Part shown: positions 1-41,266 of the stretch, piece by piece
Numbering within the stretch: the first letter of the stretch is position 1
How the letters are laid out: each line of letters opens with the position of its first letter
DNA from: a virus
Lineage: Duplodnaviria > Heunggongvirae > Uroviricota > Caudoviricetes
Reading direction: 5' to 3' (one strand)
Length of the DNA: 41,963 nucleotides
Virus record (IMG/VR): IMGVR_UViG_2548876958_000014
Notes under the pieces: generated by a model
The model's input: the letters and a program-made list of their open reading frames with translations, nothing else
Told to the model about the DNA's origin: nothing
The model's database searches: none
Program-made: the position numbers and the translations under genes

Positions 1-1719
1 ATGATTTTTAGGGATAGCTTGAGAGTATTACCTTATGGTCGAGTAGATAATGATTTCTTCCAGATAGAAGAAAGACGTTCATGGAATGCAGGGCGATATT
101 ATTGGTCTAATAGAAGGATTTTTGGTTATATTGGAATTACTCAATCCAGTAATAAAGAGCTGAAAGATAAGTCGGGGAGAGAGGGATTCATAAGAAACCA
201 GGCTGCAAGAGAACTGAAAACTATTATATCTAATTTGTTAACTGAACTTGCTGATAGATTTTTTGGTTCACGTTCTGATGACCGTAAAGAGCTTTTAGAA
301 CAAGTTAAGCGTGAAAAAGAGTTAAGAAAATCTGCTCAACAACAAGCTCGAAAATCAACACAAAAAAGTTTTTCAGAAGCTTTGAAGAATCAGACACCAG
401 TTCTTGATGCTTCCTTGGAGGCTGTTAAAAGGCTGAAAACTAAGCTTGATAAAACTGATGGTTCGTTAGATTTAAACTATCTTAAAATTATAGACAGTGA
501 TCTTACAAACTTAGATGCGTTGCGCAGTGAAATTAAAACGCCTATCAAACCTCCAAAACTTGGAATGTATGAAGAGAAATATAGAGACTACAGAGATAAA
601 TTTAATGAGTTCTCTGCGTATATTCTACAAATGAAGTTAGCAATTAATAAACTTGATTCTGAATTAAATAAACTTGAGCCTTCATTGTCAGCGAAAAATC
701 ACCTTGAAAAAAATCAAGGTATTATTAATTCTAAACTAACTAAGTTTAATAACACGATAGAGGAGAAGATACATTCTCTTTTAAAAAAATGGGCCGATGA
801 AATAAAGGTTGATCGAAGTGATTATTATGCTAAAACTATATCAGTTGTTGATTCAATAGATAATGATTCACAAATTGAAAATGTGTTTAATTTGCTCGAT
901 AGTTTATATGTTGAGTCAGTTGATACCCTAACTTTCAAATATCAATCAATAATAAAAGGTCTCGATAGATTATTTGAAGGTATAAACTTAGATTCAGCAT
1001 TCTCATTATCTGAAGAAGAACGCTCATATTTTGAAGAAAAAGCTAAAAGTTTAAACGCGCTTGCACAGTTAGGTATTAGTGTTGAGATAATATCTCATGA
1101 ACTTGAAGAAATGGATTCTATGGTAACCAGAGGACTAAACTCTCTTCCTACTTCTGTAAAAGAACACCCTGGTTTTTCATTGGCGTTAAATGCTCACAGA
1201 TCGCTTACTCAACAAATACGTTTCTTATCACCTTTGAAAATATCAGGTTATCAATCCAGGCAGAGAATAACTGGAAAAAATATCATGGATTATGTCCTGA
1301 AGTTCTTTGGGGAGCGTTTCGAACGGCAACGAATAACTATTGAATTTAGTGAAGAGTTTAAGCAAATCGCAATAACAGATATACCATCAAGGATCTATCC
1401 TGTTTTTACTAATATTATCAACAATGCAATGTATTGGGTCAGTCTGTCAAATAATAGGCTCATAAAGATTGGTTTTGTGAATTCTTTGGTTATCATAGCA
1501 AATTCTGGTCCGGCAATTGATACCGATGATATCCCGCGACTATTTGAACTATTTTATAGCAAAAGAGCAAATGGACATGGGGTAGGTCTGTATCTATGTC
1601 GAGAAAACCTTGCTGTTGCACATCATAAAATATGGTATTCAGAACCTGATGAAGGCGATAACTATTTAATAAAAGATGGCGCTAATTTTGTGATCCAGTT
1701 CAATGGAGTGGAGTTCTAA
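1..1719 (+). CDS. Histidine-kinase-like protein (DHp H-box plus HATPase_c/GHKL ATPase domain), 5' end truncated by window edge
   Basis: ORF open from base 1; H-box-like ISHELEEMDSM; C-terminal N-box-like NIINNAMYW, G1-like DTDDIP, G2-like GHGVGLYLCRE; coiled-coil-rich region before it; AT-rich codon usage. Confidence 0.55.
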   Translation: MIFRDSLRVLPYGRVDNDFFQIEERRSWNAGRYYWSNRRIFGYIGITQSSNKELKDKSGREGFIRNQAARELKTIISNLLTELADRFFGSRSDDRKELLEQVKREKELRKSAQQQARKSTQKSFSEALKNQTPVLDASLEAVKRLKTKLDKTDGSLDLNYLKIIDSDLTNLDALRSEIKTPIKPPKLGMYEEKYRDYRDKFNEFSAYILQMKLAINKLDSELNKLEPSLSAKNHLEKNQGIINSKLTKFNNTIEEKIHSLLKKWADEIKVDRSDYYAKTISVVDSIDNDSQIENVFNLLDSLYVESVDTLTFKYQSIIKGLDRLFEGINLDSAFSLSEEERSYFEEKAKSLNALAQLGISVEIISHELEEMDSMVTRGLNSLPTSVKEHPGFSLALNAHRSLTQQIRFLSPLKISGYQSRQRITGKNIMDYVLKFFGERFERQRITIEFSEEFKQIAITDIPSRIYPVFTNIINNAMYWVSLSNNRLIKIGFVNSLVIIANSGPAIDTDDIPRLFELFYSKRANGHGVGLYLCRENLAVAHHKIWYSEPDEGDNYLIKDGANFVIQFNGVEF

Positions 1720-1720
1720 T

Positions 1721-3469
1721 ATGACAGTGGCAAATTATAATTCTCTTGTCCAGAAAACTTTCTGCGAAAATGTAATTCGTTCCGTTGTCATGATTGATGA
1801 CGATTTTCTGACGTATTCTGAATCAATCAGGGCGTTGAATAACGAAGTTGATTTAGACTACAACAAAATTGACTCATCTAAACGAGCCGCTACTCTTGAG
1901 AGCTTTTTTCAATCTAAAAATATGATTTGTGATGTTGACAATGGTTCTGTTAATTTCGATGTGGATCGGATTAGAAAATCAGATCTTATTATTGTAGATT
2001 ATCATCTTGATAATAATGCACCTGATAAAACACTTAAACTATTACAAGATTTGAAAGACTCCGATCATTTAAATATGATTGTAATATATACTAGAGAGAA
2101 TTTAGAAACGGTTTGGATGCAGATATCATCGACTCTCAAAGGTGCTCTGGATATCAACAGCTTGATCATTGACTACGATAATGAAGATGTCCAAAGTTAT
2201 TGGGAAGACGTTGTATTACCGAACTTAAATGATAATGGTAATAAAGCTCTCACAAGAGATGAAACAATAGCCTATATTAAAGACAGTAAGCCTTGTAGAA
2301 GAATTAAAAGATTAATACATGATGATGCTGTGTTGGAGGATCAAAAGGATAAAAACTTCATTGCAAAAATGATTGCAGAATATGCTGTGTCTAGAAATGC
2401 AATTATTTCTAGCAACACATCTGGCAATGTCATTCGGGGTGATGAAAGCGGAGTAAAATGGATTCAATGTGGTAATATCTTTGTCTCCCTATTTCATAAG
2501 GTTCAAGATGATCATGAAAACGATGGAGATAGAATTTGGCAAACTCTCAATGATTCTCTCATTGAATGGAAACCATCTTATTATCAGTTAATAAAATCTG
2601 AAATTCAGAATGCAATCGAAGCTGAGGCTTTATCTTTTGTAAATCATTTGGCTAACGATCATTACGGTCAAGCTGCGTGGTTAAATGAGATATTAAAATC
2701 AGACTCGCCTGATATTAGATGTAGAAATATTGACTTTGTATTTGGTAATTTATCAGAAGAGCTTTATCAAAGACTTAAAAATAATAATACGCTGGATGAA
2801 TTTATCAAAAGTGTTTTTGATAGCTATTCAAATGAATACGCTAACAGCGGAGTTGCTGCATTGCTCCAATATTGCTCTTCAAAAATGGATCTGCCATCAA
2901 ATAATGATACTTATCACGAAATGTATCATGCTTTAAATATGAATTTGTCTTCAAAGAATTTTGAAGATGGTCATATTTCTACTGGCACTATTTTCTTTGA
3001 TACAGAGTCGAACAAATGGTATTTATGTGTATCTGCGGCATGTGATTTGGTTCCTACTCAGGGTAACGACCCTCACCATGTAAGATTAAGTCCGCACAGG
3101 CTCATTAAAGTTCTGGAGCTTTTTAACGCCAGTCAGAGTAAAGCATTGCCATTTGCTGAACATTCGAAATATATATATGTAATGCATAAAAATCAAAGAA
3201 AATATCTCTCTATTTTCGAAGGGGATAAAACGCTTCCTGTTGTTGATTATATGGTGGTGTTGAATCATGGAACAACAGTTGATGGCGAAGAAAAAAATAT
3301 TATTTCTGCCGTGTTTTTAAGTAATATGGATGGCAACGTGCAAAATGTTCCTGTCCGACTCAAACTTAAATCTCAACTGAGAACTGGTTATGCAGAAAGA
3401 TATCAGGCTATAGCGTCTCAGTATAGCTCAAGGATTGGTGTGGATTATGTATCAATGATGCTACCATAA
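1721..3469 (+). CDS. Receiver (REC)-like N-terminal domain protein with ~450-aa C-terminal domain of unknown function (possible effector)
   Basis: ATG at 1721 two bases after upstream stop (ORF track gives 1703); N-terminal VVMIDDD acidic pair, DLIIVDYHL candidate phospho-acceptor Asp, NMIVIYT beta4 Thr; rest unrecognised. Confidence 0.45.
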   Translation: MTVANYNSLVQKTFCENVIRSVVMIDDDFLTYSESIRALNNEVDLDYNKIDSSKRAATLESFFQSKNMICDVDNGSVNFDVDRIRKSDLIIVDYHLDNNAPDKTLKLLQDLKDSDHLNMIVIYTRENLETVWMQISSTLKGALDINSLIIDYDNEDVQSYWEDVVLPNLNDNGNKALTRDETIAYIKDSKPCRRIKRLIHDDAVLEDQKDKNFIAKMIAEYAVSRNAIISSNTSGNVIRGDESGVKWIQCGNIFVSLFHKVQDDHENDGDRIWQTLNDSLIEWKPSYYQLIKSEIQNAIEAEALSFVNHLANDHYGQAAWLNEILKSDSPDIRCRNIDFVFGNLSEELYQRLKNNNTLDEFIKSVFDSYSNEYANSGVAALLQYCSSKMDLPSNNDTYHEMYHALNMNLSSKNFEDGHISTGTIFFDTESNKWYLCVSAACDLVPTQGNDPHHVRLSPHRLIKVLELFNASQSKALPFAEHSKYIYVMHKNQRKYLSIFEGDKTLPVVDYMVVLNHGTTVDGEEKNIISAVFLSNMDGNVQNVPVRLKLKSQLRTGYAERYQAIASQYSSRIGVDYVSMMLP

Positions 3470-3995: not shown

Positions 3996-5225
3996 TTAGG
4001 CTACCAGAGCATTTGATCTTTGAGCTTGAACGTAATCACTCCACCATTGCATCAAACTCTGTCGCTCTATCAGATATTCTGCACGATTGTATGCTGCGAT
4101 AATTTCATCTTTTTTCGAGTGGGCAAGCGCTGCCTCAAGAACTTCAGCTCTGAATTTACCAGACTCCTCTGCCGCTGTTCGTGCAATAGAACGCATACCG
4201 TGAGCTACAAGCTCGCCTCCGAACCCCATTCGGATGATAGCTGCGTTGGCTGTTTGTTCATGCATATGATTAAGAGGCGCTTTTATGCTGGGGAAAACCC
4301 ATTCTCTATGCCCACTTATTGATTTCATTAATTCAAGGATGCGCAAAGCTTCTTTACTCAAAGGAACTTTGTGAAGCTTTTTCATTTTCATGAAATCAGC
4401 AGGAATGTTCCAAATGCTGTTGGTTGTATCAATATCAGACCACCTTGCGCGAACGGCTTCACCCGGACGAACCCATGTCAACAATTGCCATTCAATTAGC
4501 ATACGTGTTTCCAACCGGATTGACGCATTCGTCAAAGATTCCATAAACCTTGGCAATTCGCTTGGGGGAAGGGCAGGCATATTTTGCTTTTTTGGTTTAC
4601 TGAATCTTTGACCAAGGTTGTCAGCCGGGTTGAACTCAATAAGTTCTTCAGTAGCTGCCCACCGGAAGATTTCATTCAGACGTGAAATGATACGGCGTAG
4701 AGTTTCCAATACGCCTCGTTGCTCAATAGGATCAAGGTGTTGTTTTAAGAGCTTAGGTCGGATCTCATTGATAGGGACATTACCCAGACCGGGAAAGACA
4801 TTTCTCTCTAAGCTGCGCCAGATGTCTGCTGCATGGTCTTGTGAGATACCTGATGTCTTTACCTTCTCATCTAACCATTTCCGCGCTACGGCTTGGAGAG
4901 TGTGCTCAGTAGCACTCTTTAATGCCTTCGCCTTATCGTTGTTATGGATTTGGGGATCAACACCATTTGCCAGAAAGGAGAGATATTCATCACGTAAGGC
5001 TCTGGCTCTTGCAAGGGTAAGGTGAGGATATGTCCCAAGGCTCATTTTGGTTCTTTTCTTGCTCACTGGTACTGCATACCTGAAATACCAATTTTTCTTG
5101 CCTCCTTTCGCCAAAGGAGCGATTCGTAGAATCAGACCATCACCGTCAAACAAGTTGATTTCTTTATCGGCTGGCTTGGTGCTTTTGATTTCAGTGTCAG
5201 TGAGCTTCTTAGCGATTTTTGCCAT
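3996..5225 (-). CDS. Tyrosine recombinase / integrase, P4-IntA type
   Basis: ORF 3996..5267; likely start MAKIAKKLTDTEIKS at 5225; N-terminal arm-binding region typical of P4/CP4-57 IntA-like integrases; C-terminal catalytic region with HxxR-like AHGMRSIARTAA and Tyr in AYNRAEY; 165 bp from ssrA 3' repeat. Confidence 0.85.
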   Translation of the reverse strand: MAKIAKKLTDTEIKSTKPADKEINLFDGDGLILRIAPLAKGGKKNWYFRYAVPVSKKRTKMSLGTYPHLTLARARALRDEYLSFLANGVDPQIHNNDKAKALKSATEHTLQAVARKWLDEKVKTSGISQDHAADIWRSLERNVFPGLGNVPINEIRPKLLKQHLDPIEQRGVLETLRRIISRLNEIFRWAATEELIEFNPADNLGQRFSKPKKQNMPALPPSELPRFMESLTNASIRLETRMLIEWQLLTWVRPGEAVRARWSDIDTTNSIWNIPADFMKMKKLHKVPLSKEALRILELMKSISGHREWVFPSIKAPLNHMHEQTANAAIIRMGFGGELVAHGMRSIARTAAEESGKFRAEVLEAALAHSKKDEIIAAYNRAEYLIERQSLMQWWSDYVQAQRSNALVA

Positions 5226-5388
5226 TTTGGGACCCTCGGTTTTTGGACCCTTCTGAGTGGGTCCCATTCAGGGTGCCATAACTCGTAGTTCTCAGCAATT
5301 CTCACTGGACGACAATAGACGTAAAAAAGCCCGCAGAGCTTGTGCTGTGTGGGCTTAGTAGACTTCATTGAACTTCAAACAACTAAAA

Positions 5389-5430
5389 AGTGGTGCTGGC
5401 GGGAGTTGAACCCGCGTCCGAAATTCCTAC
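5389..5430. repeat. Direct repeat of the ssrA 3' end (att core; junction between prophage and neighbouring island)
   Basis: 5394..5430 is identical to 40912..40948 (37 bp); preceding TGGTG also matches but the ssrA GAG is missing, so it is a non-functional 3' fragment of tmRNA. Confidence 0.85.
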
Positions 5431-5624
5431 ATACCATTTTTATTATGGTAAAAACAGTAGATTATGTTTGAAAACAATGTGTTAGTGTTATTTTGTATTT
5501 GCTCGTCTTACGCGTTTTTAATGCTCTGCCGCCAAAGTGCCGCCATTACATCAAGTATCTAGAATAAAATTAGTTAATAAATTACAATTAATATGTTAAT
5601 TGTTCTTGCATTCATAAGTGGGAC

Positions 5625-7361
5625 GTGATGAAAGAAAAAAAATTCGTTAGTGAGCTTTTCCTTGAAAATGGGCAGTTTATTTTAGTCGGTTTGACAGGTC
5701 GAACTGGTTCTGGTTGCACAACAACAGCTAATATTCTTGAAAACGAAAAAACAGTCTTCCCTGATGTAAGTAAATTACAGGGGTTTTACAAGGGATTGGA
5801 TGTCCATCGTTATAATATAGTTAAAAAATTCGCAGAAAATCACTGGGAAAATTTTTACTCAATTAAGGTGAGTGACCTAATCTCAGCGTATCTTCTGATG
5901 TTAACAGTTGAGGAAGCTTCTGAATTCATTCTATCATCTAATAAATCTATCAGTAAAGAGCATTTAGATATTGTATTAACTTTTGGTGTATTCTCAGATA
6001 ATCTCATTTTGACAAGATTTAAAAATGTAATTGAGAATTTGCTTGATCATAATAGTGAATTGAAGCTTGATGAAAAAACGATTAATAAATTTATATCAAT
6101 TTTGAAGTTAGTTAGAAAATTTACTAAAGAATTCAAAGCTGAACTAAATGAGATAAACTCAAATTTATATGTTTCAGCCTATCAGTTAGCAGGTAAGTCA
6201 ATTAGACGTCGTGGGCGTATTGAAGTCGATTTTGAAGATAAAGAGTTTATGCCTAAATCTGTTTTTCATTTGCCGGAAACTATTAATAGGGTTATTAAAT
6301 TAATAAGAAAAAGCAAAAGAGATAACGCATTAATTGTCATAGATGCTATTAGAAATCCATATGAGGCAAAATTTTTTAAGGATAGATATTCTGCATTTCA
6401 TTTAATGTCAATAAATGCCCCAGATGAACATCGAACAAACTATTTGCGGAAACTACATAAGTTTTCAGAAAAGCAGATAGAGGAAATAGATTCTGTAGAG
6501 TCAGGTAAAGGTGATAACTCTTACAAACATCTCACCAATCCAAATGTAACTAAATGTATTGAACTATCAGATATACACATTTTTAACCCAAAAAATGAAT
6601 TTGATAATGACAATATTTTAAAAGCACAATTAGCGTGGTACATCGCACTGATGAAGCATCCTGGTCTGATAACACCTACTGCAATGGAAAGGGTTATGCA
6701 AGTTGCGTATACGGTAAAATTAAACTCTGGCTGTATATCTAGACAGGTGGGAGCTGTAGTAACTGATGGTGATAATTCAATAAAATCAGTTGGTTGGAAT
6801 GATGTTGCCAACGGTCAGATTCCTTGCTCTATGAGATCTCTAGATGGCCTAATGAACGATTTTGATGAAAAAACGTACAGTCATTATGAGAGAAATAATA
6901 GTTCTTTCAGAATTAAAGCTAATGAGAAACTCTTAAATTTTAGGGCGATAGATAAAACTGGTGATATTTATAGAGGCAGGAACTTATCTTATTGTTTTAA
7001 AGATATACATAATGATCTTGATAAAGAGAAAAAAGGTAATCAAGTTCATACACGTGCATTACATGCTGAGGAAAACGCATTTTTGCAACTTGCAAAATAT
7101 GGTGGTATTGGCGTTCTGGGGGGGAAGTTGTATACAACTGCCAGTCCCTGTGAGTTGTGTGCGAAAAAAGCTTATCAGTTAGGTATATCTGAAATTGTAT
7201 TTATTGATCCCTACCCAGGTATAGCTCAAGACCATATTATTAATATAGGTAGTAAGCCACCAAAGTTAATACAATTTAGAGGCGCAATTGGGAAGTCATA
7301 TCACCGACTTTATGAGCAAATTATCCCGATAAAAGATGAGTTAGAATATCTCCTTGAGTAG
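5625..7361 (+). CDS. Fusion protein: N-terminal P-loop nucleotide-kinase-like domain + C-terminal cytidine/dCMP deaminase zinc-binding domain (resembles anti-phage dCTP deaminase architecture)
   Basis: N-terminal GLTGRTGSGCTTTANIL (CoaE/dNK-like P-loop with Cys where Lys is expected); C-terminal HAEENAF and SPCELCAKKA (H-A-E ... P-C-x-x-C deaminase zinc motifs); AT-rich; sits between att repeat and P2-type int. Confidence 0.6.
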   Translation: MMKEKKFVSELFLENGQFILVGLTGRTGSGCTTTANILENEKTVFPDVSKLQGFYKGLDVHRYNIVKKFAENHWENFYSIKVSDLISAYLLMLTVEEASEFILSSNKSISKEHLDIVLTFGVFSDNLILTRFKNVIENLLDHNSELKLDEKTINKFISILKLVRKFTKEFKAELNEINSNLYVSAYQLAGKSIRRRGRIEVDFEDKEFMPKSVFHLPETINRVIKLIRKSKRDNALIVIDAIRNPYEAKFFKDRYSAFHLMSINAPDEHRTNYLRKLHKFSEKQIEEIDSVESGKGDNSYKHLTNPNVTKCIELSDIHIFNPKNEFDNDNILKAQLAWYIALMKHPGLITPTAMERVMQVAYTVKLNSGCISRQVGAVVTDGDNSIKSVGWNDVANGQIPCSMRSLDGLMNDFDEKTYSHYERNNSSFRIKANEKLLNFRAIDKTGDIYRGRNLSYCFKDIHNDLDKEKKGNQVHTRALHAEENAFLQLAKYGGIGVLGGKLYTTASPCELCAKKAYQLGISEIVFIDPYPGIAQDHIINIGSKPPKLIQFRGAIGKSYHRLYEQIIPIKDELEYLLE

Positions 7362-7741: not shown

Positions 7742-8758
7742 CTATCTTAAGTTGCATAAAGGGTTTTTAGTTACCGCATCTTCAAGGTGATCGGGCGAAA
7801 AGTGGGCGTAAATCATCGTCATTTTTATATCGGCATGGCCCAGAATATCGCGCAGCACCAGTATGTTTCCGCCATTCATCATAAAATGGCTGGCGAATGT
7901 ATGACGTAGCACGTGAGTGCATTGGCCCTCTGGCAGCTCGATGCCAGCTCGCTTTACTGCTCGTTCAAAGGCTTTTCTGCACGGGGTGAATAGCTTCCCT
8001 CTGTTCTTGGGGAGTTCGTCATACAGATCTTGAGATATCGGCACGGTGCGGTTTTTCTTACCCTTCGTCTTGGTATAAGTGATGCGGTATTTAGATAACT
8101 GATGGCCCTGCAGGTTTTCAGCTTCACTCCAGCGTGCGCCGGTGGCCAGGCATATTTTTGCAATCAAAAGCAGACTGGGGTTTTGAGAATCAGCGCAGGC
8201 ATCTAGCAGACGTTTAATTTCTTCCGAGGTCAGGAACGCCAGTTCCCCCTCAGCGATTTTAAATGTTGGCAGCCCGGCGAGAGGATTTGGTGCTGACCAG
8301 TGGCCTAGTTTTTTCAATGTGCCGAAAACCGATGATAGGTTACGTTGCTCAAGATTCACCGTGCGTGGTTTTACTGGCGACATTAGTGTGCCGTCTTCGT
8401 TACGAACGTCACCTTTTAACCGTGCTTCGCGGTATTTCGTAAAGTCACCGGCTGTCAGTTCTGAGGCGATGGGGTCGCCTAGACCATTACAGATAATTCT
8501 AAGTTTCGCCATGAGGCGCTTGGGGTCTGCGAGTGTCTGACCATACAGGGAATACCAAAGCTCAATTAATTCTGATAGGCGTCGCCGATCATCCTTTTCA
8601 CCCAACCACGGTTTTTTATTCACTTCTTCCATTGTGAAGCTTTCAAAAGCAATGGCTTCGCCTTTCGTAGCAAATTGCTTACGCACGCGCTTACCATTGC
8701 GTCCATTGGGATAGCACTCACACAACCATTTTCCGTTCGGCTGTTTTCTGATGGTCAT
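7742..8758 (-). CDS. int: P2/186-type tyrosine integrase
   Basis: 338 aa, matching the ~337-aa P2/186 integrases; conserved stretches CLATGARWSEAE, KYRITYTKTKGKKNRTVPIS, VLRHTFASHFMMNGGNILVL, MTMIYAHF; followed by repressor gene in same orientation. Confidence 0.9.
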   Translation of the reverse strand: MTIRKQPNGKWLCECYPNGRNGKRVRKQFATKGEAIAFESFTMEEVNKKPWLGEKDDRRRLSELIELWYSLYGQTLADPKRLMAKLRIICNGLGDPIASELTAGDFTKYREARLKGDVRNEDGTLMSPVKPRTVNLEQRNLSSVFGTLKKLGHWSAPNPLAGLPTFKIAEGELAFLTSEEIKRLLDACADSQNPSLLLIAKICLATGARWSEAENLQGHQLSKYRITYTKTKGKKNRTVPISQDLYDELPKNRGKLFTPCRKAFERAVKRAGIELPEGQCTHVLRHTFASHFMMNGGNILVLRDILGHADIKMTMIYAHFSPDHLEDAVTKNPLCNLR

Positions 8759-8759
8759 A

Positions 8760-9392
8760 TCAAAGGCTCTTAATGATTTTCAGTGCGCGGCCTACTACCT
8801 CAATGTCATCTAGGCCACACTCAAACGATGAATCATCCTGATGCACTACTAATTTGTTTCCCGGAAGTCGAGTCAATTTAACAATGCTTTTTATCCCGTC
8901 AATATCGACTAACCACATACCATTTACTGGTGGTGTTTGGTTGCGATCTATTAAATAAGAATCACCAGAAGTAGTCACCAGCAGTAGGTTGCTTGAGTCT
9001 GAGGGGAGTATGCTGCTATCAATGATTGCTTTTCCAGCATCGACCAATAAACCACCTTTGAGAGTCGCCTTGTCAATTTCAGGAGATACTAGTTCAGAAA
9101 GAGGTACAACCTTGCTGGAGTTCACGGAGTTGATATTTTTTTTAGGTTCAATGTTTGGACCTGGCTCCCCCTGTCCGGTGGTTAGCCACAGTAAAGAAAC
9201 TCCTGTTTCCAAGGCGCACTGAATCACCCACTCTGCAGGAAAACTATCTCTTAAGTATCTGTTTGCCATGGTGCTTTTTGATGCGCCTAAGTGATCGCAA
9301 AGTTGCTGTCTGGACTTGAAATCATAGGCTGCCATTAGTCTATGGATAGCCTCTCTTCCCCCTGTATTCTCTCCAACCTTTATCTGTATCAT
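8760..9392 (-). CDS. cI: Phage CI-type immunity repressor (186-like)
   Basis: Sits between int and a divergent early operon; N-terminal HTH-like region (SRQQLCDHLGASKSTMANRYLR) and C-terminal domain as in 186 CI; start may be internal. Confidence 0.7.
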   Translation of the reverse strand: MIQIKVGENTGGREAIHRLMAAYDFKSRQQLCDHLGASKSTMANRYLRDSFPAEWVIQCALETGVSLLWLTTGQGEPGPNIEPKKNINSVNSSKVVPLSELVSPEIDKATLKGGLLVDAGKAIIDSSILPSDSSNLLLVTTSGDSYLIDRNQTPPVNGMWLVDIDGIKSIVKLTRLPGNKLVVHQDDSSFECGLDDIEVVGRALKIIKSL

Positions 9393-11337: not shown

Positions 11338-12191
11338 GCACCATCCTGAAATGGGCGGGAAATAAAACCGCCATTATGTCCGAACTGAAAAAACACCTTC
11401 CTGCTGGCCCGCGACTGGTTGAACCTTTCGCGGGTTCCTGTGCTGTGATGATGGAGACGGATTACCCCAGCTATCTTGTTGCGGATATTAATCCTGATTT
11501 AATCAACCTCTATAAAAAGGTTGCTGCTGATTGTGAGGCATTTATATCTCGTGCCAGAGCTTTATTTGAGGAAGCAAACAGGGAGGTGGCTTATTACAAC
11601 ATAAGGCAGGAGTTTAATTACTCCACTGAAATTACTGATTTCATGAAAGCGGTATATTTTCTGTATCTCAATCGTCATGGTTACCGTGGGTTATGTCGCT
11701 ATAACAAGAGCGGGTATTTCAACATTCCCTACGGTAATTATAAAAATCCGTATTTCCCTGAAAAAGAAATTCGCGCATTTGCAGAGAAAGCCCAGCGGGC
11801 AACGTTTATCTGCGCCAGCTTTGATGAAACGCTGGCGATGTTGAAGGCGGGGGATGTGGTGTATTGCGATCCGCCGTATGACGGCACGTTTTCCGGTTAT
11901 CACACTGACGGCTTCACTGAAGATGACCAGTATCACCTGGCATCCGTTCTTGAACATCGGTCATCAGAAGGACATCCGGTCATTGTTTCTAACAGTGACA
12001 CATCCCTGATCCGTTCGCTGTATCGCAATTTTACTCACCACTACATCAAGGCAAAACGCAGCATCGGCGTAGCAGCTGGTGAGAGTAAATCTGCAACAGA
12101 AATCATCGCTGTTTCTGGGGCGCGCTGCTGGGTGGGATTTGATCCTTCGCGTGGCGTGGATAGTTCTGCCGTGTACGGAGTGCGTGCATGA
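11334..12191 (+). CDS. DNA N6-adenine methyltransferase (Dam-like, orphan)
   Basis: ATG 11334; N-terminal KWAGNK and EPFAGS (SAM-binding) and catalytic DPPY motif; no cognate restriction gene seen. Confidence 0.75.
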
Positions 12192-14602
12192 GCCATGCTG
12201 ATATGAACAACTGCAGCGGCTTTAACGAGGCCGCCGCAGCATTCTCATGGAACAGCCCGAAAAAGGCTATTAACCCTTATCTGGACCCGGCGGAAGTTGC
12301 GCCGGTTTCTGCGCTTTCAAACCTGATCACTCTGTACGCTGCCGATAACGAGCAGGAACAACTGCGCCGTGAGGCACTGAGTGATCAGGTCTGGGAGCGT
12401 TATTTCTTTAATGAATCCCGTGATCCTGTCCAGCGCGAAATGGAGCAGGATAAGCTCATTAGCCGGGCAAAGCTGGCGCATGAGCAGCAGCGTTTTAATC
12501 CAGACATGGTCATTCTGGCAGACGTCAACGCCCAGCCTTCCCATATCAGCAAGCCGCTGATGCAACGTATTGAATACTTCAGCAGCCTGGGCAGGCCAAA
12601 GGCTTATTCCCGCTATTTGCGTGAGACGATTAAGCCATGTCTGGAACGACTGGAGCATGTACGCGAGAGTCAGCTATCCACTTCTTTTCGCTTTATGGCA
12701 AGCCATGAAGGGCTGGACGGCCTGCTGATCCTGCCTGAAATGAGTCAGGATCAGGTGAAACGCCTGTCCACCCTTGTTGCTGCGCATATGAGCATGTGTC
12801 TTGATGCAGCTTGTGGCGATTTGTATGCCACCGATGACGTTAAGCCAGAAGAAATCCGCAAAACATGGGAAAAGGTGGCAGCGGAAACCCTGCGTCTGGA
12901 TGTTATTCCGCCTGCGTTTGAGCAACTCCGTCGGAAAAGAAACCGCCGTAAACCCGTGCCCTATGAACTCATTCCGGGTTCGCTGGCGCGTATGTTGTGT
13001 GCCGACTGGTGGTATCGGAAATTATGGAAGATGCGTTGCGAATGGCGGGAAGAGCAGTTGCGTGCTGTCTGCCTGGTCAGCAAAAAAGCATCCCCCTATG
13101 TCAGCTATGAAGCCGTGATGCATAAACGTGAGCAGCGCCGTAAGTCGCTGGAGTTTTTTCGTTCTCATGAACTGGTGAACGAAGACGGCGACACGCTGGA
13201 TATGGAATATGTGGTAAACGCCAGCAGCAGCAACCCTGCGCATCGCCGCAATGAGATGATGGCCTGTGTTAAAGGTCTGGAGCTTATCGCGGAAATGCGC
13301 GGTGACTGCGCCGTTTTCTACACCATCACCTGTCCGTCACGTTTCCATTCCACGCTAAATAACGGCAGGCCCAACCCAACCTGGACAAATGCGACGGTAA
13401 GACAAAGCAGTGATTATCTGGTCGGCATGTTTGCTGCATTTCGTAAGGCGATGCACAAAGCCGGATTGCGGTGGTATGGCGTGCGGGTGGCTGAGCCGCA
13501 TCATGACGGTACAGTTCACTGGCACCTGTTGTGTTTTATGCGCAAAAAAGACCGCCGCGCCATCACTGCATTACTGCGTAAGTTTGCCATCCGTGAAGAC
13601 CGCGAGGAGCTGGGCAATAACACAGGGCCGCGCTTTAAGTCTGAGTTGATTAACCCGCGCAAAGGAACGCCGACAAGCTACATCGCGAAATACATTAGTA
13701 AGAACATTGACGGGCGTGGTCTGGCTGGCGAGATCAGCAAGGAAACGGGTAAATCCCTGCGTGATAACGCTGAATACGTTAATGCCTGGGCGTCTCTGCA
13801 TCGTGTTCAGCAATTCCGCTTCTTTGGCATTCCGGGGCGTCAGGCTTACCGTGAACTGCGATTGCTGGCTGGTCAGGCGGCAAGGCAACAGGGGGACAAA
13901 AAAGCAGGTGCGCCGGTACTGGATAACCCGCGCCTTGATGCAATCCTGGCTGCTGCTGATGCTGGTTGTTTTGCCACCTACATCATGAAGCAGGGCGGCG
14001 TACTGGTTCCCCGCAAATATCACCTGATCAGAACCGCTTATGAAATCAACGAAGAGCCGACCGCCTATGGCGATCACGGCATTCGTATTTATGGCATCTG
14101 GTCACCCATTGCAGAGGGCAAGATCTGCACTCATGCAGTGAAGTGGAAAATAGTTCGTAAGGCCGTTGACGTTCAGGAGGCGGCAGCCGACCAGGGCGCT
14201 TGCGCCCCTTGGACTCGTGGCAATAACTGTCCCCTTGCTGAAAATTTGAACCAACAAGGGAAAGACAAATTAGCTGATGGGGACTCCAGAACGGATATTA
14301 CCTGTATGAATGACAAGGAGTTGCACGATTACCTGCACAGTATGAGCAAAAAAGAGCGCCGGGAACTGGCTGCAAGGTTACGCCAGGTGAAACCGAAACG
14401 GCGTAAAGACTACAAACAGCGAATTACAGACCATCAGCGACTGCAGCTCGTGTATGAGCTGAGGTCCAGAGGATTTGATGGCAGCGAGAAAGAGGTCGAT
14501 TTACTCCTTCGCGGCGGCAGTATTCCGTCAGGAGCAGGCCTGCGTATCTTCTATCGGAACCAGCGTTTGCAGGAAGATGACAAGTGGCGGAACCTGTATT
14601 AA
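12188..14602 (+). CDS. A: Replication initiation protein gpA (rolling-circle HUH endonuclease)
   Basis: 804 aa; HUH-like [10 protein letters not shown] and Tyr-rich YIAKYISKN catalytic region; P2/186 gene A position. Confidence 0.85.
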
Positions 14603-14696
14603 TTACGCGGGTTAACAATTCGTGCTCTTAATAATACCAGGCATATCAGGCTGATGAACGTAAAAAAACGTTTTACATCAGTAAGATTATTATATA

Positions 14697-14712
14697 CTGT
14701 AAATATAAACAG
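14697..14712. promoter_or_regulatory. LexA (SOS) box
   Basis: CTGTAAATATAAACAG fits CTGT-N8-ACAG with AT-rich centre; ~45 bp upstream of small ORF and dinI-like gene; second ACAG half-site just downstream (TATACAGTG). Confidence 0.55.
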
Positions 14713-14755
14713 TGGTTATGTATACAGTGTTGCTTGTGGTGTCATAGGAGGAAAG

Positions 14756-14944
14756 ATGCAGGACTATTTTTTGGAGTCTTTGAAGCTCCAGCGCATTGAT
14801 TTTTTTCTTAAGCTTGTAGCGGCTAGTGAGTGTAGTGATGAAGATAAGGGGCTGGCTCTGCAGTGGGTTTCTGAATTGACTGATGAACTCATGGCAAAAA
14901 TCAGAACCCACGAATACAACCGCTCAATGGATGTCATCAGCTGA
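14756..14944 (+). CDS. Small SOS-controlled protein (possible Tum-like antirepressor; unverified)
   Basis: ATG 14756 preceded by AGGAGG RBS; 62 aa; immediately downstream of LexA box; function inferred from 186 organisation only. Confidence 0.35.
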   Translation: MQDYFLESLKLQRIDFFLKLVAASECSDEDKGLALQWVSELTDELMAKIRTHEYNRSMDVIS

Positions 14945-14954
14945 GGTGACTTTT

Positions 14955-15188
14955 ATGCGCATTGAAATAATGATCGATAAAGAGCAGAAGATTAGCCAGT
15001 CTACCCTGGACGCCCTTGAATCCGAGCTTTACCGCAATCTGCGCTCCCTGTATCCCAAAACGGTAATTCGTATCCGCAAAGGTAGCTCTAACGGTGTGGA
15101 ACTGACCGGACTGCAACAGGACGAAGAAAGAAAACAAGTGATGAAAATTATGCAGAAGGTGTGGGAAGACGACAGCTGGCTGCATTAA
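14955..15188 (+). CDS. dinI: DinI-family protein
   Basis: 78 aa starting MRIEIMIDK; ends WEDDSWLH, resembling the DinI C-terminus; co-transcribed from LexA-box promoter. Confidence 0.7.
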   Translation: MRIEIMIDKEQKISQSTLDALESELYRNLRSLYPKTVIRIRKGSSNGVELTGLQQDEERKQVMKIMQKVWEDDSWLH

Positions 15189-15322
15189 GAAACGTTGCTG
15201 GCGTCTGAACTTGCTTCTGGCGTCAGCAAGGTTGAACAACGAGCCCTTGCGAGGCATTAGCTCTGTAGTGCATGTCTATGCCGCATGAGATCGCATGATC
15301 GTTTGAGGATCGTTTTTGCTAA

Positions 15323-15347
15323 GGCCCGCCAGAACTGGCGGGCTTTT
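15323..15347 (+). terminator. Rho-independent terminator after dinI-like operon
   Basis: GGCCCGCCAG / CTGGCGGGC stem with AA loop followed by TTTT. Confidence 0.6.
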
Positions 15348-15392
15348 GCGTAGATCATGCAGGTGCATGAAAACCACTACATAAAGCGGGCA

Positions 15393-15411
15393 GGCGTGGC
15401 GGGGATACGAG
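15393..15411. other. Candidate cos (cohesive end) site
   Basis: GGCGTGGCGGGGATACGAG resembles my recollection of the 19-nt P2/186 cohesive ends (GGCG(A/T)GGCGGGGAAAGCA-); recollection and position both uncertain. Confidence 0.25.
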
Positions 15412-15497
15412 CGCGCGCTTAGCCATGAATCTGTGGACTTGATGGTGAAGCTAAGGTAATTTGTATCAAAAAAAGCAGTACAATAGGGATATATAGA

Positions 15498-16577
15498 GTG
15501 GCGTTATCAGATGCGTTAATTACAGTAAATCAAGCAGAACGGGGCGGTGAAAACGCGTTGAGAGGCTTTTCATATCAAGCCTCTTGGGGGATAAATTATT
15601 TACTTGAAAAACAAAAAGAAAAGGAGAAATATTTATTTCTATTTGAATATCATGACGATATTCTTGTATTGAATTCATCTGTTTCTCCGACTAGTGCTGA
15701 GTTTATCCAAGTTAAAACAAAAAAAGATGGTAAATGGACACTCGCAGCAATAGTGAACGCAACAAAAGCTAAACCTAAATCATTTGTTGCAAAACTATAT
15801 GACCATTTCTATCAATTCGTTGGTCACGAAATTTATATGGTTCTGTTATCGAATGCTGGATTCGATTTCTTAAATGATAATAACGAAAAAGGTAGTGATC
15901 TTAATAATGAGCATAAGGAAATTATAATTAGTAAGGTTCAAGAGCAGCTAAATACTAAAAAAGAAGTTCCTCTTGATAAAATAAAATTTAAAACATCTGA
16001 TCTTAGTTTGTTAGATCCTAACTCACATTTATACGGGAAAGTTGCAGTTTTTTTGAATTCTTACTTTGGGGATGATCATGGTATTAATTCAACAGCATTC
16101 ACTAAATTATTAATCAATAAGTGTAATGAGAAGGTTAGTGTTGCTTCTAGTGATATCAAAACTTTTGAAGATTTAGTACTAAAGAAAGGTATATCTTCAG
16201 AATTTGTAACTGATTTATTATCTGGACTCATTGCAAGCATAAAAATAACGCCAAAATGGGAACAGGTTTGTATGTTGCTTGGTACTTTCTCAGATCCTTA
16301 TGAGGGGATTAAATTACAATCAGTTTTTACACGCATATCAATAAAAGTGCTCAATGTCAATTCAATATACTATCTTTATTTTCTGGAATTTCAATCGGCT
16401 CTAAAGAGTATAGAGCATTATCGTGAGATACCTGTTCGAGACCTCTTCTTTACACTCGAAAAAACAATTGCAGCGGGGGACGGGGATTTCTCTTTATTAA
16501 ATCAAGAAGAGAAATTTATGATTGCTATATATGCAATTATAAAGTTGACTTTTGAGGATGTTTCTTATGAAGAATAA
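15498..16577 (+). CDS. Candidate defence effector: nuclease-like protein (possible PD-(D/E)xK / Cap4-like fold; LmuA-like)
   Basis: 359 aa, GTG start; N-terminal GFSYQ and acidic cluster EYHDDILV followed by EFIQVKTKK (D...(E/Q)xK-like); AT-rich; stop overlaps downstream start. Confidence 0.5.
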   Translation: MALSDALITVNQAERGGENALRGFSYQASWGINYLLEKQKEKEKYLFLFEYHDDILVLNSSVSPTSAEFIQVKTKKDGKWTLAAIVNATKAKPKSFVAKLYDHFYQFVGHEIYMVLLSNAGFDFLNDNNEKGSDLNNEHKEIIISKVQEQLNTKKEVPLDKIKFKTSDLSLLDPNSHLYGKVAVFLNSYFGDDHGINSTAFTKLLINKCNEKVSVASSDIKTFEDLVLKKGISSEFVTDLLSGLIASIKITPKWEQVCMLLGTFSDPYEGIKLQSVFTRISIKVLNVNSIYYLYFLEFQSALKSIEHYREIPVRDLFFTLEKTIAAGDGDFSLLNQEEKFMIAIYAIIKLTFEDVSYEE

Positions 16578-18225
16578 CGTTAAATTTAAAAATATAAAAA
16601 TACTCTCATTAAGAGACAGAAAAGCTTTTTCTTATGAGTTTTCAGAAGGGGTTAACTTCATATATGGTACAAATGATGTTGGTAAATCAAGCCTGATTAA
16701 AAGTCTTTATTACACATTAGGTGGAGATTTAAGGCTTGATGATGCTTGGAAATCAGATGATATAGTTACACTGGTGGAAATTAATAACGGGGAAAGTGAT
16801 TTTATTTTTTTGCGTTATAAAAAGATTATTGGTGTCTTTGATTTGAAGAATGATGATCTAGTCGTGTATAACACGATTTCATCATTAGCATCTCGTGTTT
16901 CAAATATATTTGGTTTTAAACTGGAATTACATAATAAATATACGGGTGCTACGACTCAGGCAAACCCTGCTTGTTTGTTTGCCCCATTCTTTATTGATCA
17001 GGATGAAGGATGGAAAGCGGTGATAAATTCTTTCGAAAACATGAGTATGTACTCAGAATGGCAAAAAAACATTCTTTACTATCACTCTGGAATTAAGCCA
17101 AAGGAATATTACACAGTTCAAGGGAAAATCAAAGAAGTTAAAGTTAAAATTTCAGAGTTAGATGGTTTTGTTAAGGTTCTAAAAAGAAGCAAAAGTAAGA
17201 TTGATGAATCTTTTGGTGTGGTTTTATTTGATGTTGATTTGGATTTTTATAAATCAAAGTTAGAACGTATATTAAATGAATATTCTAATTTGAATTTAGT
17301 TCAGACAGAATATAGATTGAATCTTTTGAGGTTATATTCTAGGAAGAATTTCCTTGAGAGTGAACTCAAAGAGATAACTGCGATTATTGATAATGAATTT
17401 GAGATTTCGAATTTTCGAGATGATAATGTTGCTTATTCAGTAAATGAATATAATTATATAAACCATAGAGATGAAATGCTCAAAAACATTGCTGTTCTTG
17501 CAGATGAGAAAAGCAAGATTGAGGAAAATATTCCTAAATTGAATCAAAAGCTAGAAGAGTCAAGGGCTGCTTCAGAGGCGTTGCAGGCGCTGATTTTAGA
17601 AACTCAATCGGAAATAACGCTTCATGATGTTATTAAATCTGCTGCATACCATGAAATTGAATCTACTTTTGTTTCACAGTTAGATGAGTTATTCGTTGAG
17701 ATTGGTCGAAAAGAAGGCGAGTTGACAGAATTACAAGAAGAATTAGAAGTATACAATGATAAGAAAAGAACTGTTAAAATAAATGACTGTTTCAAAGAGT
17801 ATTTCGCTAAAGCTCTTAAAGAGCTTGGTGTCGAAAATACAAAGGTAGGTGGCCTTAGTAGTTATAATAATATTACTAAGGGTAAGACTGGTAGTCGAGG
17901 TCCTCGAGGTATATTTGCATTTCACTACGCGCTACTTAGTGTTATGAAAAGCAACTCTTCAGTTGAGAATATGCCTATAGTAATAGACTCTCCAAAGCAA
18001 CAAGATTTGGATCCAGAGCATACGCATAAGCTTATAAAACTATGCTTGGATGGGTTTTCCCTTACAAATCAGATTATTATTGGCACTGTTGGTTATGAGA
18101 GTTTCATGGATGGTTTTAATAGCATCAAACTTGAAAATAAATATCATCTTTTAAATGATGAACATTATGATAATGTTTATTCTCAATTAATGCCATTGTT
18201 TGAACGGGTGATACTTTCAAGATGA
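16552..18225 (+). CDS. SMC/Rad50-like ABC ATPase with central coiled coil (LmuB-like)
   Basis: Walker A GTNDVGKSS; long heptad-rich middle; C-terminal PIVIDSPKQQDLD (Walker B / D-loop-like); possible starts 16552/16558/16567 overlap upstream gene. Confidence 0.55.
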   Translation: MRMFLMKNNVKFKNIKILSLRDRKAFSYEFSEGVNFIYGTNDVGKSSLIKSLYYTLGGDLRLDDAWKSDDIVTLVEINNGESDFIFLRYKKIIGVFDLKNDDLVVYNTISSLASRVSNIFGFKLELHNKYTGATTQANPACLFAPFFIDQDEGWKAVINSFENMSMYSEWQKNILYYHSGIKPKEYYTVQGKIKEVKVKISELDGFVKVLKRSKSKIDESFGVVLFDVDLDFYKSKLERILNEYSNLNLVQTEYRLNLLRLYSRKNFLESELKEITAIIDNEFEISNFRDDNVAYSVNEYNYINHRDEMLKNIAVLADEKSKIEENIPKLNQKLEESRAASEALQALILETQSEITLHDVIKSAAYHEIESTFVSQLDELFVEIGRKEGELTELQEELEVYNDKKRTVKINDCFKEYFAKALKELGVENTKVGGLSSYNNITKGKTGSRGPRGIFAFHYALLSVMKSNSSVENMPIVIDSPKQQDLDPEHTHKLIKLCLDGFSLTNQIIIGTVGYESFMDGFNSIKLENKYHLLNDEHYDNVYSQLMPLFERVILSR

Positions 18226-40903: not shown

Positions 40904-41266
40904 TGGTGGAGCTGGCGGGAGTTGAACCCGCGTCCGAAATTCCTACATCCTCGGTACTACATGCTTAGTCAGTCTTTACATTCGCTTGCCAGCTGCGGAC
41001 GGACACGCCACTAACAAACTAGCCTGATTAAGTTTTAACGCTTCAACCCCAGGCAGGGCTTCCACGCGATCTCTTTTGGGTTTGACCTCTCTTGATCCCC
41101 GTCCTAAGAGCGGAGGCTAGGGAGAGAGGGCTCTAAGCAGGTTATTAAGCTGCTAAAGCGTAGTTTTCGTCGTTTGCGACTATTTTTTGCGGCTTTTTAC
41201 GAGGCCAACCGCCCCTCGGCATGCACCTTGGGTTTCGCAAATCCCGTCGAATCCAGAATCAGCCCC
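40904..41266 (-). ncRNA. ssrA: tmRNA (SsrA), complete
   Basis: Reverse complement begins GGGGCTGATTCTGGATTCGACGGG and ends ...GGTTCAACTCCCGCCAGCTCCACCA; contains tag ORF GCAAACGACGAAAACTACGCTTTAGCAGCTTAA (ANDENYALAA); 363 nt. Confidence 0.95.

Follow-up and report, generated by a model that had tools for sequence, protein, structure and literature searches.

A predicted LexA-controlled operon of the split-Tum form in a P2/186-family prophage

In the record of phage 186, tum is described as a LexA-repressed gene whose product inhibits DNA binding by CI, and 186 Tum is said to act on CI, a point for which Shearwin 1998 is cited. In Salmonella, a lexA null mutation is reportedly lethal because of Fels-2, going by the title of Bunny et al. 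2002. In Fels-2 and PSP3, tum is split into an antirepressor gene and a dinI homologue, the upstream gene of PSP3 being the antirepressor (Lemire et al. 2011, PMC3121763). Comparable small, LexA-repressed antirepressors, GfoA/GftA of the Gifsy phages and AntC of N15, bind a non-cleavable phage repressor (PMC3121763). In the Phollow study a gene named tum was deleted in DuoHS, a P2-like prophage of E. coli HS, and in that study Δtum and lexA(Ind-) each abolish MMC-induced lysis and viral foci (PMC12055606). An operator of two SOS boxes has been described for colicins, with two LexA dimers, very tight repression and late induction (PMC2994835).

The DNA analysed here is a stretch of 41,963 nucleotides (the window) and represents a P2/186-family (Peduoviridae) prophage; a comparison of 901 of its bases with E. 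coli VG888-46E9 showed 100% identity. The gene order runs from the replicase gene gpA through the SOS module and two cargo genes to the structural-gene block; in order, strands and sizes the ORFs beyond the cargo correspond to the HS prophage genes for portal, terminase, capsid and tail. The prophage genes upstream of the SOS module are the following.

7742-8758, minus strand: integrase
8760-9392, minus strand: 186-type CI immunity repressor (PF07022 and PF16452), the presumed target of Tum
after CI: an 80-aa ORF with no Pfam match
after the 80-aa ORF: CII
after CII: ORF for a Dam-like methylase, identified by its synteny with 813R9 and HS
12188-14602: gpA replicase, 804 aa, upstream of the SOS module

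The gene that we call tum starts at 14756, directly downstream of gpA, and the order of gene A followed by tum is common to 186, PSP3, Fels-2, HS, ENT90, ESSI-2 and the Yersinia phages. The original prediction, made from the letters of the window, had proposed an SOS box upstream of a 62-aa ORF with a strong ribosome-binding site, a DinI-family gene next to it, and a 186-type CI in the same phage. All of these elements were recovered, and those of the SOS module are arranged as follows.

14662-14668, plus strand: A-tract, a block conserved among the 27 aligned upstream regions
14672-14677, plus strand: candidate -35 hexamer TTTACA, a conserved block placed by analogy with 186 p95
14695-14714, plus strand: SOS box 1, the 20-mer TACTGTAAATATAAACAGTG, matching the LexA consensus TACTGTATATATATACAGTA at 17/20 positions
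14695-14700, plus strand: presumed -10 element TACTGT, the first six bases of box 1
14712-14727, plus strand: SOS box 2, GTGGTTATGTATACAG, sharing one base (G14712) with box 1
14746-14751, plus strand: Shine-Dalgarno sequence AGGAGG, 4 nt 5' of the ATG, from sequence
14756-14944, plus strand: tum, 62 aa, phrog_698 match (E 6e-38)
14933-14950, plus strand: small hairpin over the tum stop codon (14942-14944) and the dinI ribosome-binding site GAGG (14943-14946)
14955-15188, plus strand: dinI-like gene, 77 aa, PF06183 match (E 4.7e-23)
15195-15229, plus strand: stem-loop directly after the dinI stop, from RNA folding, without a U tract
15321-15350, plus strand: Rho-independent terminator GGCCCGCCAG-AA-CTGGCGGGCTTTTG, from RNA folding

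We are confident that these elements make up the SOS operon of a Fels-2/PSP3-type P2/186 (Peduoviridae) phage in its split-Tum form, and that this operon couples DNA damage to prophage induction. In the lysogen, LexA would sit on the double overlapping operator (14695-14729), where it would cover the -10 element and the start region and keep the two small genes silent. Upon DNA damage RecA would become active, LexA would cleave itself, the operon would be transcribed and the 62-aa Tum (TumA) would build up. Tum would then bind the 186-type CI and keep it off its operators, so that the early lytic promoter would fire and the prophage be induced. The co-transcribed DinI-like TumB would be an optional accessory, which most likely acts on RecA filaments and would tune the strength or the duration of the SOS signal. 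For the SOS module, what this work observed directly is its elements in the sequence together with their homologies, conservation and purifying selection; the requirement for tum and for a cleavable LexA comes from the literature and concerns a 97%-identical orthologue.

The 62-aa ORF is a genuine gene, since the start and length of its family are conserved across the Enterobacterales and its median dN/dS against the window is 0.08 over 38 genomic loci. It matches 481 database proteins, the best 120 of which are 79-98% identical to it, and among the listed matches of 58-72 aa start and length are constant in Escherichia, Salmonella, Klebsiella, Citrobacter, Enterobacter, Pectobacterium, Kosakonia and others. 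An exhaustive HMMER search with a narrow family profile gave 89 representatives; nearly all are stand-alone proteins of 55-75 aa, and no fused Tum is found among them. The protein is 96.8% identical to STM2728 of Fels-2, and the published DuoHS primers NHR24 and NHR28 have exact matches at 14736-14758 and 14942-14964, that is, at the start and the stop of the ORF, while primer NHR23 matches exactly inside gpA. An AF2 model of the protein is a two-helix hairpin (helices 2-23 and 28-61, pLDDT 89). Pfam and NCBIfam scans gave no match for the ORF, a sequence search of the PDB gave no informative match, and Foldseek of the model against the PDB returned generic helical hairpins alone, at E > 1, and no informative structural analogue.

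Other readings of the same stretch were rejected. A 96-aa version would begin, with the ATG at 14654, ahead of both the -35 element and the promoter, and its first 34 residues are not conserved. Two minus-strand antisense ORFs (14690-14911 and 14764-14937) were discarded because purifying selection operates in the plus-strand frame. As to the annotation of tumA-type genes, PHROGs 698, 8554, 1993 and 37919 carry 'unknown function', the RefSeq name is 'hypothetical protein' in every listed match, some records call the antirepressor 'levan regulatory protein', and many gene calls take a wrong upstream start that yields versions of 84-123 aa.

A comparison of the 62-aa protein with 186 Tum had been put forward as a check on its role. 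Pairwise BLASTP of the ORF against 186 Tum gave no alignment; an HMM of the ORF family matches residues 6-43 of 186 Tum (34.3 bits, E 3.7e-12 with 4 targets) and, at 29-54 bits, the Tum-like proteins of Yersinia phages and ENT90. In the reverse profile search the 186 Tum N-terminus leads back to phrog_698 (E 6e-6), and it also matches phrog_8554 and phrog_1993, both of which are matched by the window ORF too. With tblastn the family forms a graded series from the window and Fels-2 through the ESSI-2 types, the Yersinia 'tum protein' and ENT90 to 186. Homology of the ORF to the N-terminal half of Tum thus emerges from profiles and not from pairwise comparison. The 77-aa DinI-like protein aligns to residues 71-145 of 186 Tum with 43% identity. 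Since the ORF resembles the N-terminal and the DinI-like protein the C-terminal half, the two genes of the window are the halves of 186 Tum, separately encoded, and judged by sequence the module is a 'split Tum' (tumA/tumB) arrangement as annotated in PSP3. Position, profile homology and the published DuoHS genetics all support the idea that the small ORF is the functional counterpart of 186 Tum.

The presumed target of Tum, a CI of 210 aa, carries both the HTH and the C-terminal domains of 186 CI and is 33% identical to it, which justifies its designation as 186-type. No Pfam match to the peptidase S24 (autocleavage) domain was reported for it at E ≤ 0.01, so that a direct inactivation of CI by RecA is not to be expected. 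The window CI is 42% identical to DuoHS CI; Tum, DinI and gpA of the two prophages are about 97% identical. The action of Tum on this CI is therefore extrapolated from DuoHS, and by analogy Tum would be expected to bind this CI variant directly. Co-evolution of Tum and CI was considered and rejected, since their identities show no positive correlation across 31 loci (Spearman -0.05 for the CI N-terminal domain (NTD) and -0.19 for the C-terminal domain (CTD)); Tum pairs that are at least 90% identical occur with CI NTDs that are 37-100% and CTDs that are 24-99% identical. It follows from this lack of correlation that the tum module and the immunity region reassort. The same reassortment, and the modest identity to the CI of DuoHS, where tum was deleted, would fit an operon that is SOS-regulated but mismatched: Tum would be blind to this CI, the operon would be an SOS accessory through the action of DinI on host RecA, and the prophage would not be SOS-inducible through it. 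We regard such a mismatch as unlikely, however, because CIs 92-96% identical to that of the window are paired with the same Tum family at two related loci (L019 and L022), because Tum is under strong purifying selection whatever its CI partner, and because the positions at which 90% or more of the CIs agree are concentrated in the NTD, where they would offer a common target.

On the reading that we prefer, in which Tum inactivates the resident CI, Tum presumably recognises a conserved feature of CI, which suggests that it could cross-induce heteroimmune P2-like prophages. A single genome may hold as many as 4 copies of the module, and the chromosome NZ_CP128581, a 100% match to the window, has 3 places that match it. 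Tentatively, and giving the idea somewhat less than even weight, we propose that the Fels-2-type TumA is a 'generic' antirepressor directed at a surface shared by heteroimmune 186-type CIs, probably in the NTD. Several P2-like prophages of different immunity in one cell could then be induced in trans by one and the same SOS-induced Tum, and the double operator would set a high damage threshold for a collective decision.

The PF06183 match of the downstream gene product scores 81.7 bits against a cut-off of 24.2 and spans profile positions 1-63 of 63, and the protein aligns with residues 1-77 of E. coli DinI (PDB 1GHH; E 1e-6). It falls below the cut-off of the NCBIfam equivalog for chromosomal DinI (NF007893; 44.9 vs 111 bits), and PSP3 TumB is about 78% identical to it, as judged by eye. 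These comparisons mark it as a phage DinI-like paralogue of the TumB type and not as the host DinI. Its place in the DinI family and the phrase 'modulates SOS induction' in the 186 record suggest that it may bind RecA filaments and modulate their co-protease activity. Ten bases separate the tum stop from the dinI start. The gene lies directly 3' of tum in 18 of the 40 related loci and is absent from ENT90, ESSI-2 and the Yersinia phages, so DinI is an optional accessory, a detail that the original prediction did not have.

The hairpin at 14933-14950, found in a terminator-like scan, has a 6-bp stem followed by TTTT and, speculatively, may couple the translation of tum and dinI. Such coupling would be compatible with a different division of labour, in which the DinI-like protein, or the pair together, is the inducer, the 62-aa protein is a helper and the Δtum phenotype arises from the loss of coupled dinI expression. 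The accessible text of the DuoHS study mentions no complementation of Δtum (PMC12055606), and to that extent a polar effect on dinI is formally possible. We consider this alternative very improbable, given that 22 of the 40 loci, like the three phage types just named, keep the LexA box and tum without dinI, and that the antirepressor activity of PSP3 was reported in the upstream gene (PMC3121763).

The core of box 1 is the 16-mer CTGTAAATATAAACAG (CTG-N10-CAG, 14697-14712), and the 20-mer is the sole site with three or fewer mismatches from the LexA consensus in the 42-kb window. The looser pattern CTGT-N8-ACAG occurs twice in the window against 0.55 expected; the second match, at 6731, lies inside the deaminase-type defence gene 5625-7361 and is probably due to chance. 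Of 40 genome loci from about 20 genera, 38 have a box with 15-19 of 20 consensus positions in front of tum, and all 9 diverged phage homologues as well as PSP3 have a LexA box (17-18/20) located 18-41 nt 5' of the start codon. The sequence around these conserved boxes has diverged. The second box, which overlaps the first, is a detail absent from the original prediction. Its exact double-box pattern, CTG-N10-CAGTG-N10-CAG, recurs in 23 of 50 tum loci, while 186, PSP3, ENT90, ESSI-2, the Yersinia phages and the Pantoea/Erwinia types have a single box only. Boxes 1 and 2 together have the layout of a colicin-type double overlapping SOS operator, and both would be expected to be occupied by LexA dimers.

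A sigma-70 consensus scan called no promoter for the SOS module, and its position was derived from the analogy with p95 together with phylogenetic footprinting. In the alignment of 27 diverged upstream regions the order of conserved blocks is the A-tract with TTTACA, a variable 17-nt spacer, TACTGT...CAGTG, ...ATACAGT, which corresponds to box 2, and the ribosome-binding site, whose AGGAGG is nearly invariant. The SOS promoter would therefore be TTTACA-17-TACTGT, a putative equivalent of 186 p95 (TTCACA-18-TACTGT), and because the TACTGT element falls within box 1 LexA would occlude it. That the box arose by chance within AT-rich intergenic DNA and that the operon is expressed constitutively or from a phage promoter, to which the silent consensus scan and the recurrence of the looser pattern at 6731 might point, is scarcely credible, since none of 100 shuffles contained a site within three mismatches of the 20-mer consensus, the position of the box is conserved over about 50 diverged loci while its degenerate positions vary, and lexA(Ind-) blocks induction of the near-identical prophage (PMC12055606).

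The operon had been described as ending at a clean terminator. A terminator does exist, with an 11-bp GC-rich stem followed by UUUUG, and it is the probable end of the SOS transcript; it lies at 15321-15350, outside the stretch 14697-15188, and not at the DinI stop. The 175-nt segment that bears it has an RNA fold z-score of -4.1. It belongs, together with the U-less hairpin, to a structured non-coding stretch of 240 nt (15189-15430) that is common to 813R9 and L011; in HS and Fels-2 the sequence departs from it right at the dinI stop codon. The stem-loop at 15195-15229 is likewise common to 813R9 and L011 and is not found in HS and Fels-2. No match above noise came from a scan of 14550-15550 against Rfam.

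A Lamassu anti-phage system forms the cargo that separates the SOS operon from the portal gene, and relatives carry other cargo at this spot. To the left of the prophage integrase there is a second element (3996-7361), and the 572-aa and 588-aa ORFs adjoin this integrase/deaminase island. The corresponding features are listed below.

15498-16577: LmuA, with a Cap4-nuclease/DUF4297 domain (PDLC00243, E 4e-143; PF14130)
16552-18225: LmuB, SMC-like ATPase (PDLC00255, E 6e-253)
3996-5267, minus strand: tyrosine integrase of the second element
5625-7361: dCTP-deaminase-type defence protein, 578 aa (PADLOC dCTPase, E 1e-145; Pfam dCMP_cyt_deam_1)
within 1-3469: 572-aa ORF, from the first base of the window and possibly cut at its 5' end
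within 1-3469: 588-aa ORF with a response-receiver-like domain (PF19192)
40904-41266, minus strand: tmRNA gene ssrA (tag ANDENYALAA), at the right end of the window

No PADLOC match was obtained for the 572-aa or the 588-aa ORF. The prophage and the neighbouring island may occupy an ssrA integration hotspot, at which Fels-2 integrates as well.

The module is present in 1281 of 5426 complete E. coli genomes. It explains how a non-cleavable repressor of the 186 type is coupled to DNA damage, and would thereby make the prophage inducible by antibiotics and genotoxins. The prediction of an SOS-controlled tum and dinI is correct and already known: it is not new because the same gene has been deleted in a near-identical E. 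coli prophage, with loss of induction. The system is thus verified genetically in that prophage, annotated in PSP3 and textbook knowledge for 186. Its practical value lies in annotation, as TumA falls into a domain gap despite its wide occurrence. Modest interest remains in the double operator of the colicin type, in the promiscuity that Tum apparently shows toward heteroimmune CIs and in this annotation gap.

Among the known systems, the Gifsy phages and N15 resemble the locus, by their published description, in having a dinI homologue in the same operon as the antirepressor. They are lambdoid phages, whereas the present locus belongs to the P2/186 family, and in Gifsy the order is reversed, with dinI first. 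The operators of colicins R, E1 and K share the design of two 16-bp boxes that overlap by one base, the second starting with GTG. The cra (colicin R) promoter of pColR is 85.7% identical to the double box of the window over 42 nt, and its CTGTACATAAAACCAG and GTGGTTATGTGTACAG overlap in the same way as CTGTAAATATAAACAG and GTGGTTATGTATACAG. The colicin operator, however, governs a bacteriocin/lysis operon on small plasmids and not a prophage antirepressor.

Phage 186 has its p95 SOS operon at the same position after gene A, with a TACTGT -10 element inside the LexA box and a 186-type CI as the target. It differs in encoding both domains as a fusion protein of 146 aa that has internal starts, in its single SOS box and in a downstream orf97 that lies behind a partial terminator. 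PSP3 has gene A, a LexA box, a small antirepressor gene and a separate dinI homologue in the same order as the window, and its record describes tumA as 'similar to 5' end of 186 tum; UV induction of prophage' and tumB as 'similar to dinI and 3' end of 186 tum'. The PSP3 TumA is far diverged (3 bits with the window family HMM) and is linked through phrog_1993, and its only SOS box lies 22 nt from the start codon.

The closest counterparts are tum of DuoHS and STM2728/STM2726.1 of the Salmonella phage Fels-2, with which the window shares a near-identical promoter and double operator, the same ribosome-binding site and the same gene order. DuoHS agrees with the window in 60/62 residues of Tum and 75/77 of DinI and is 97.5% identical in gpA; it has another CI immunity type (42% identity). 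From the dinI stop onward DuoHS and Fels-2 are unlike the window in sequence, and it is there that the window carries a Lamassu system as its cargo.
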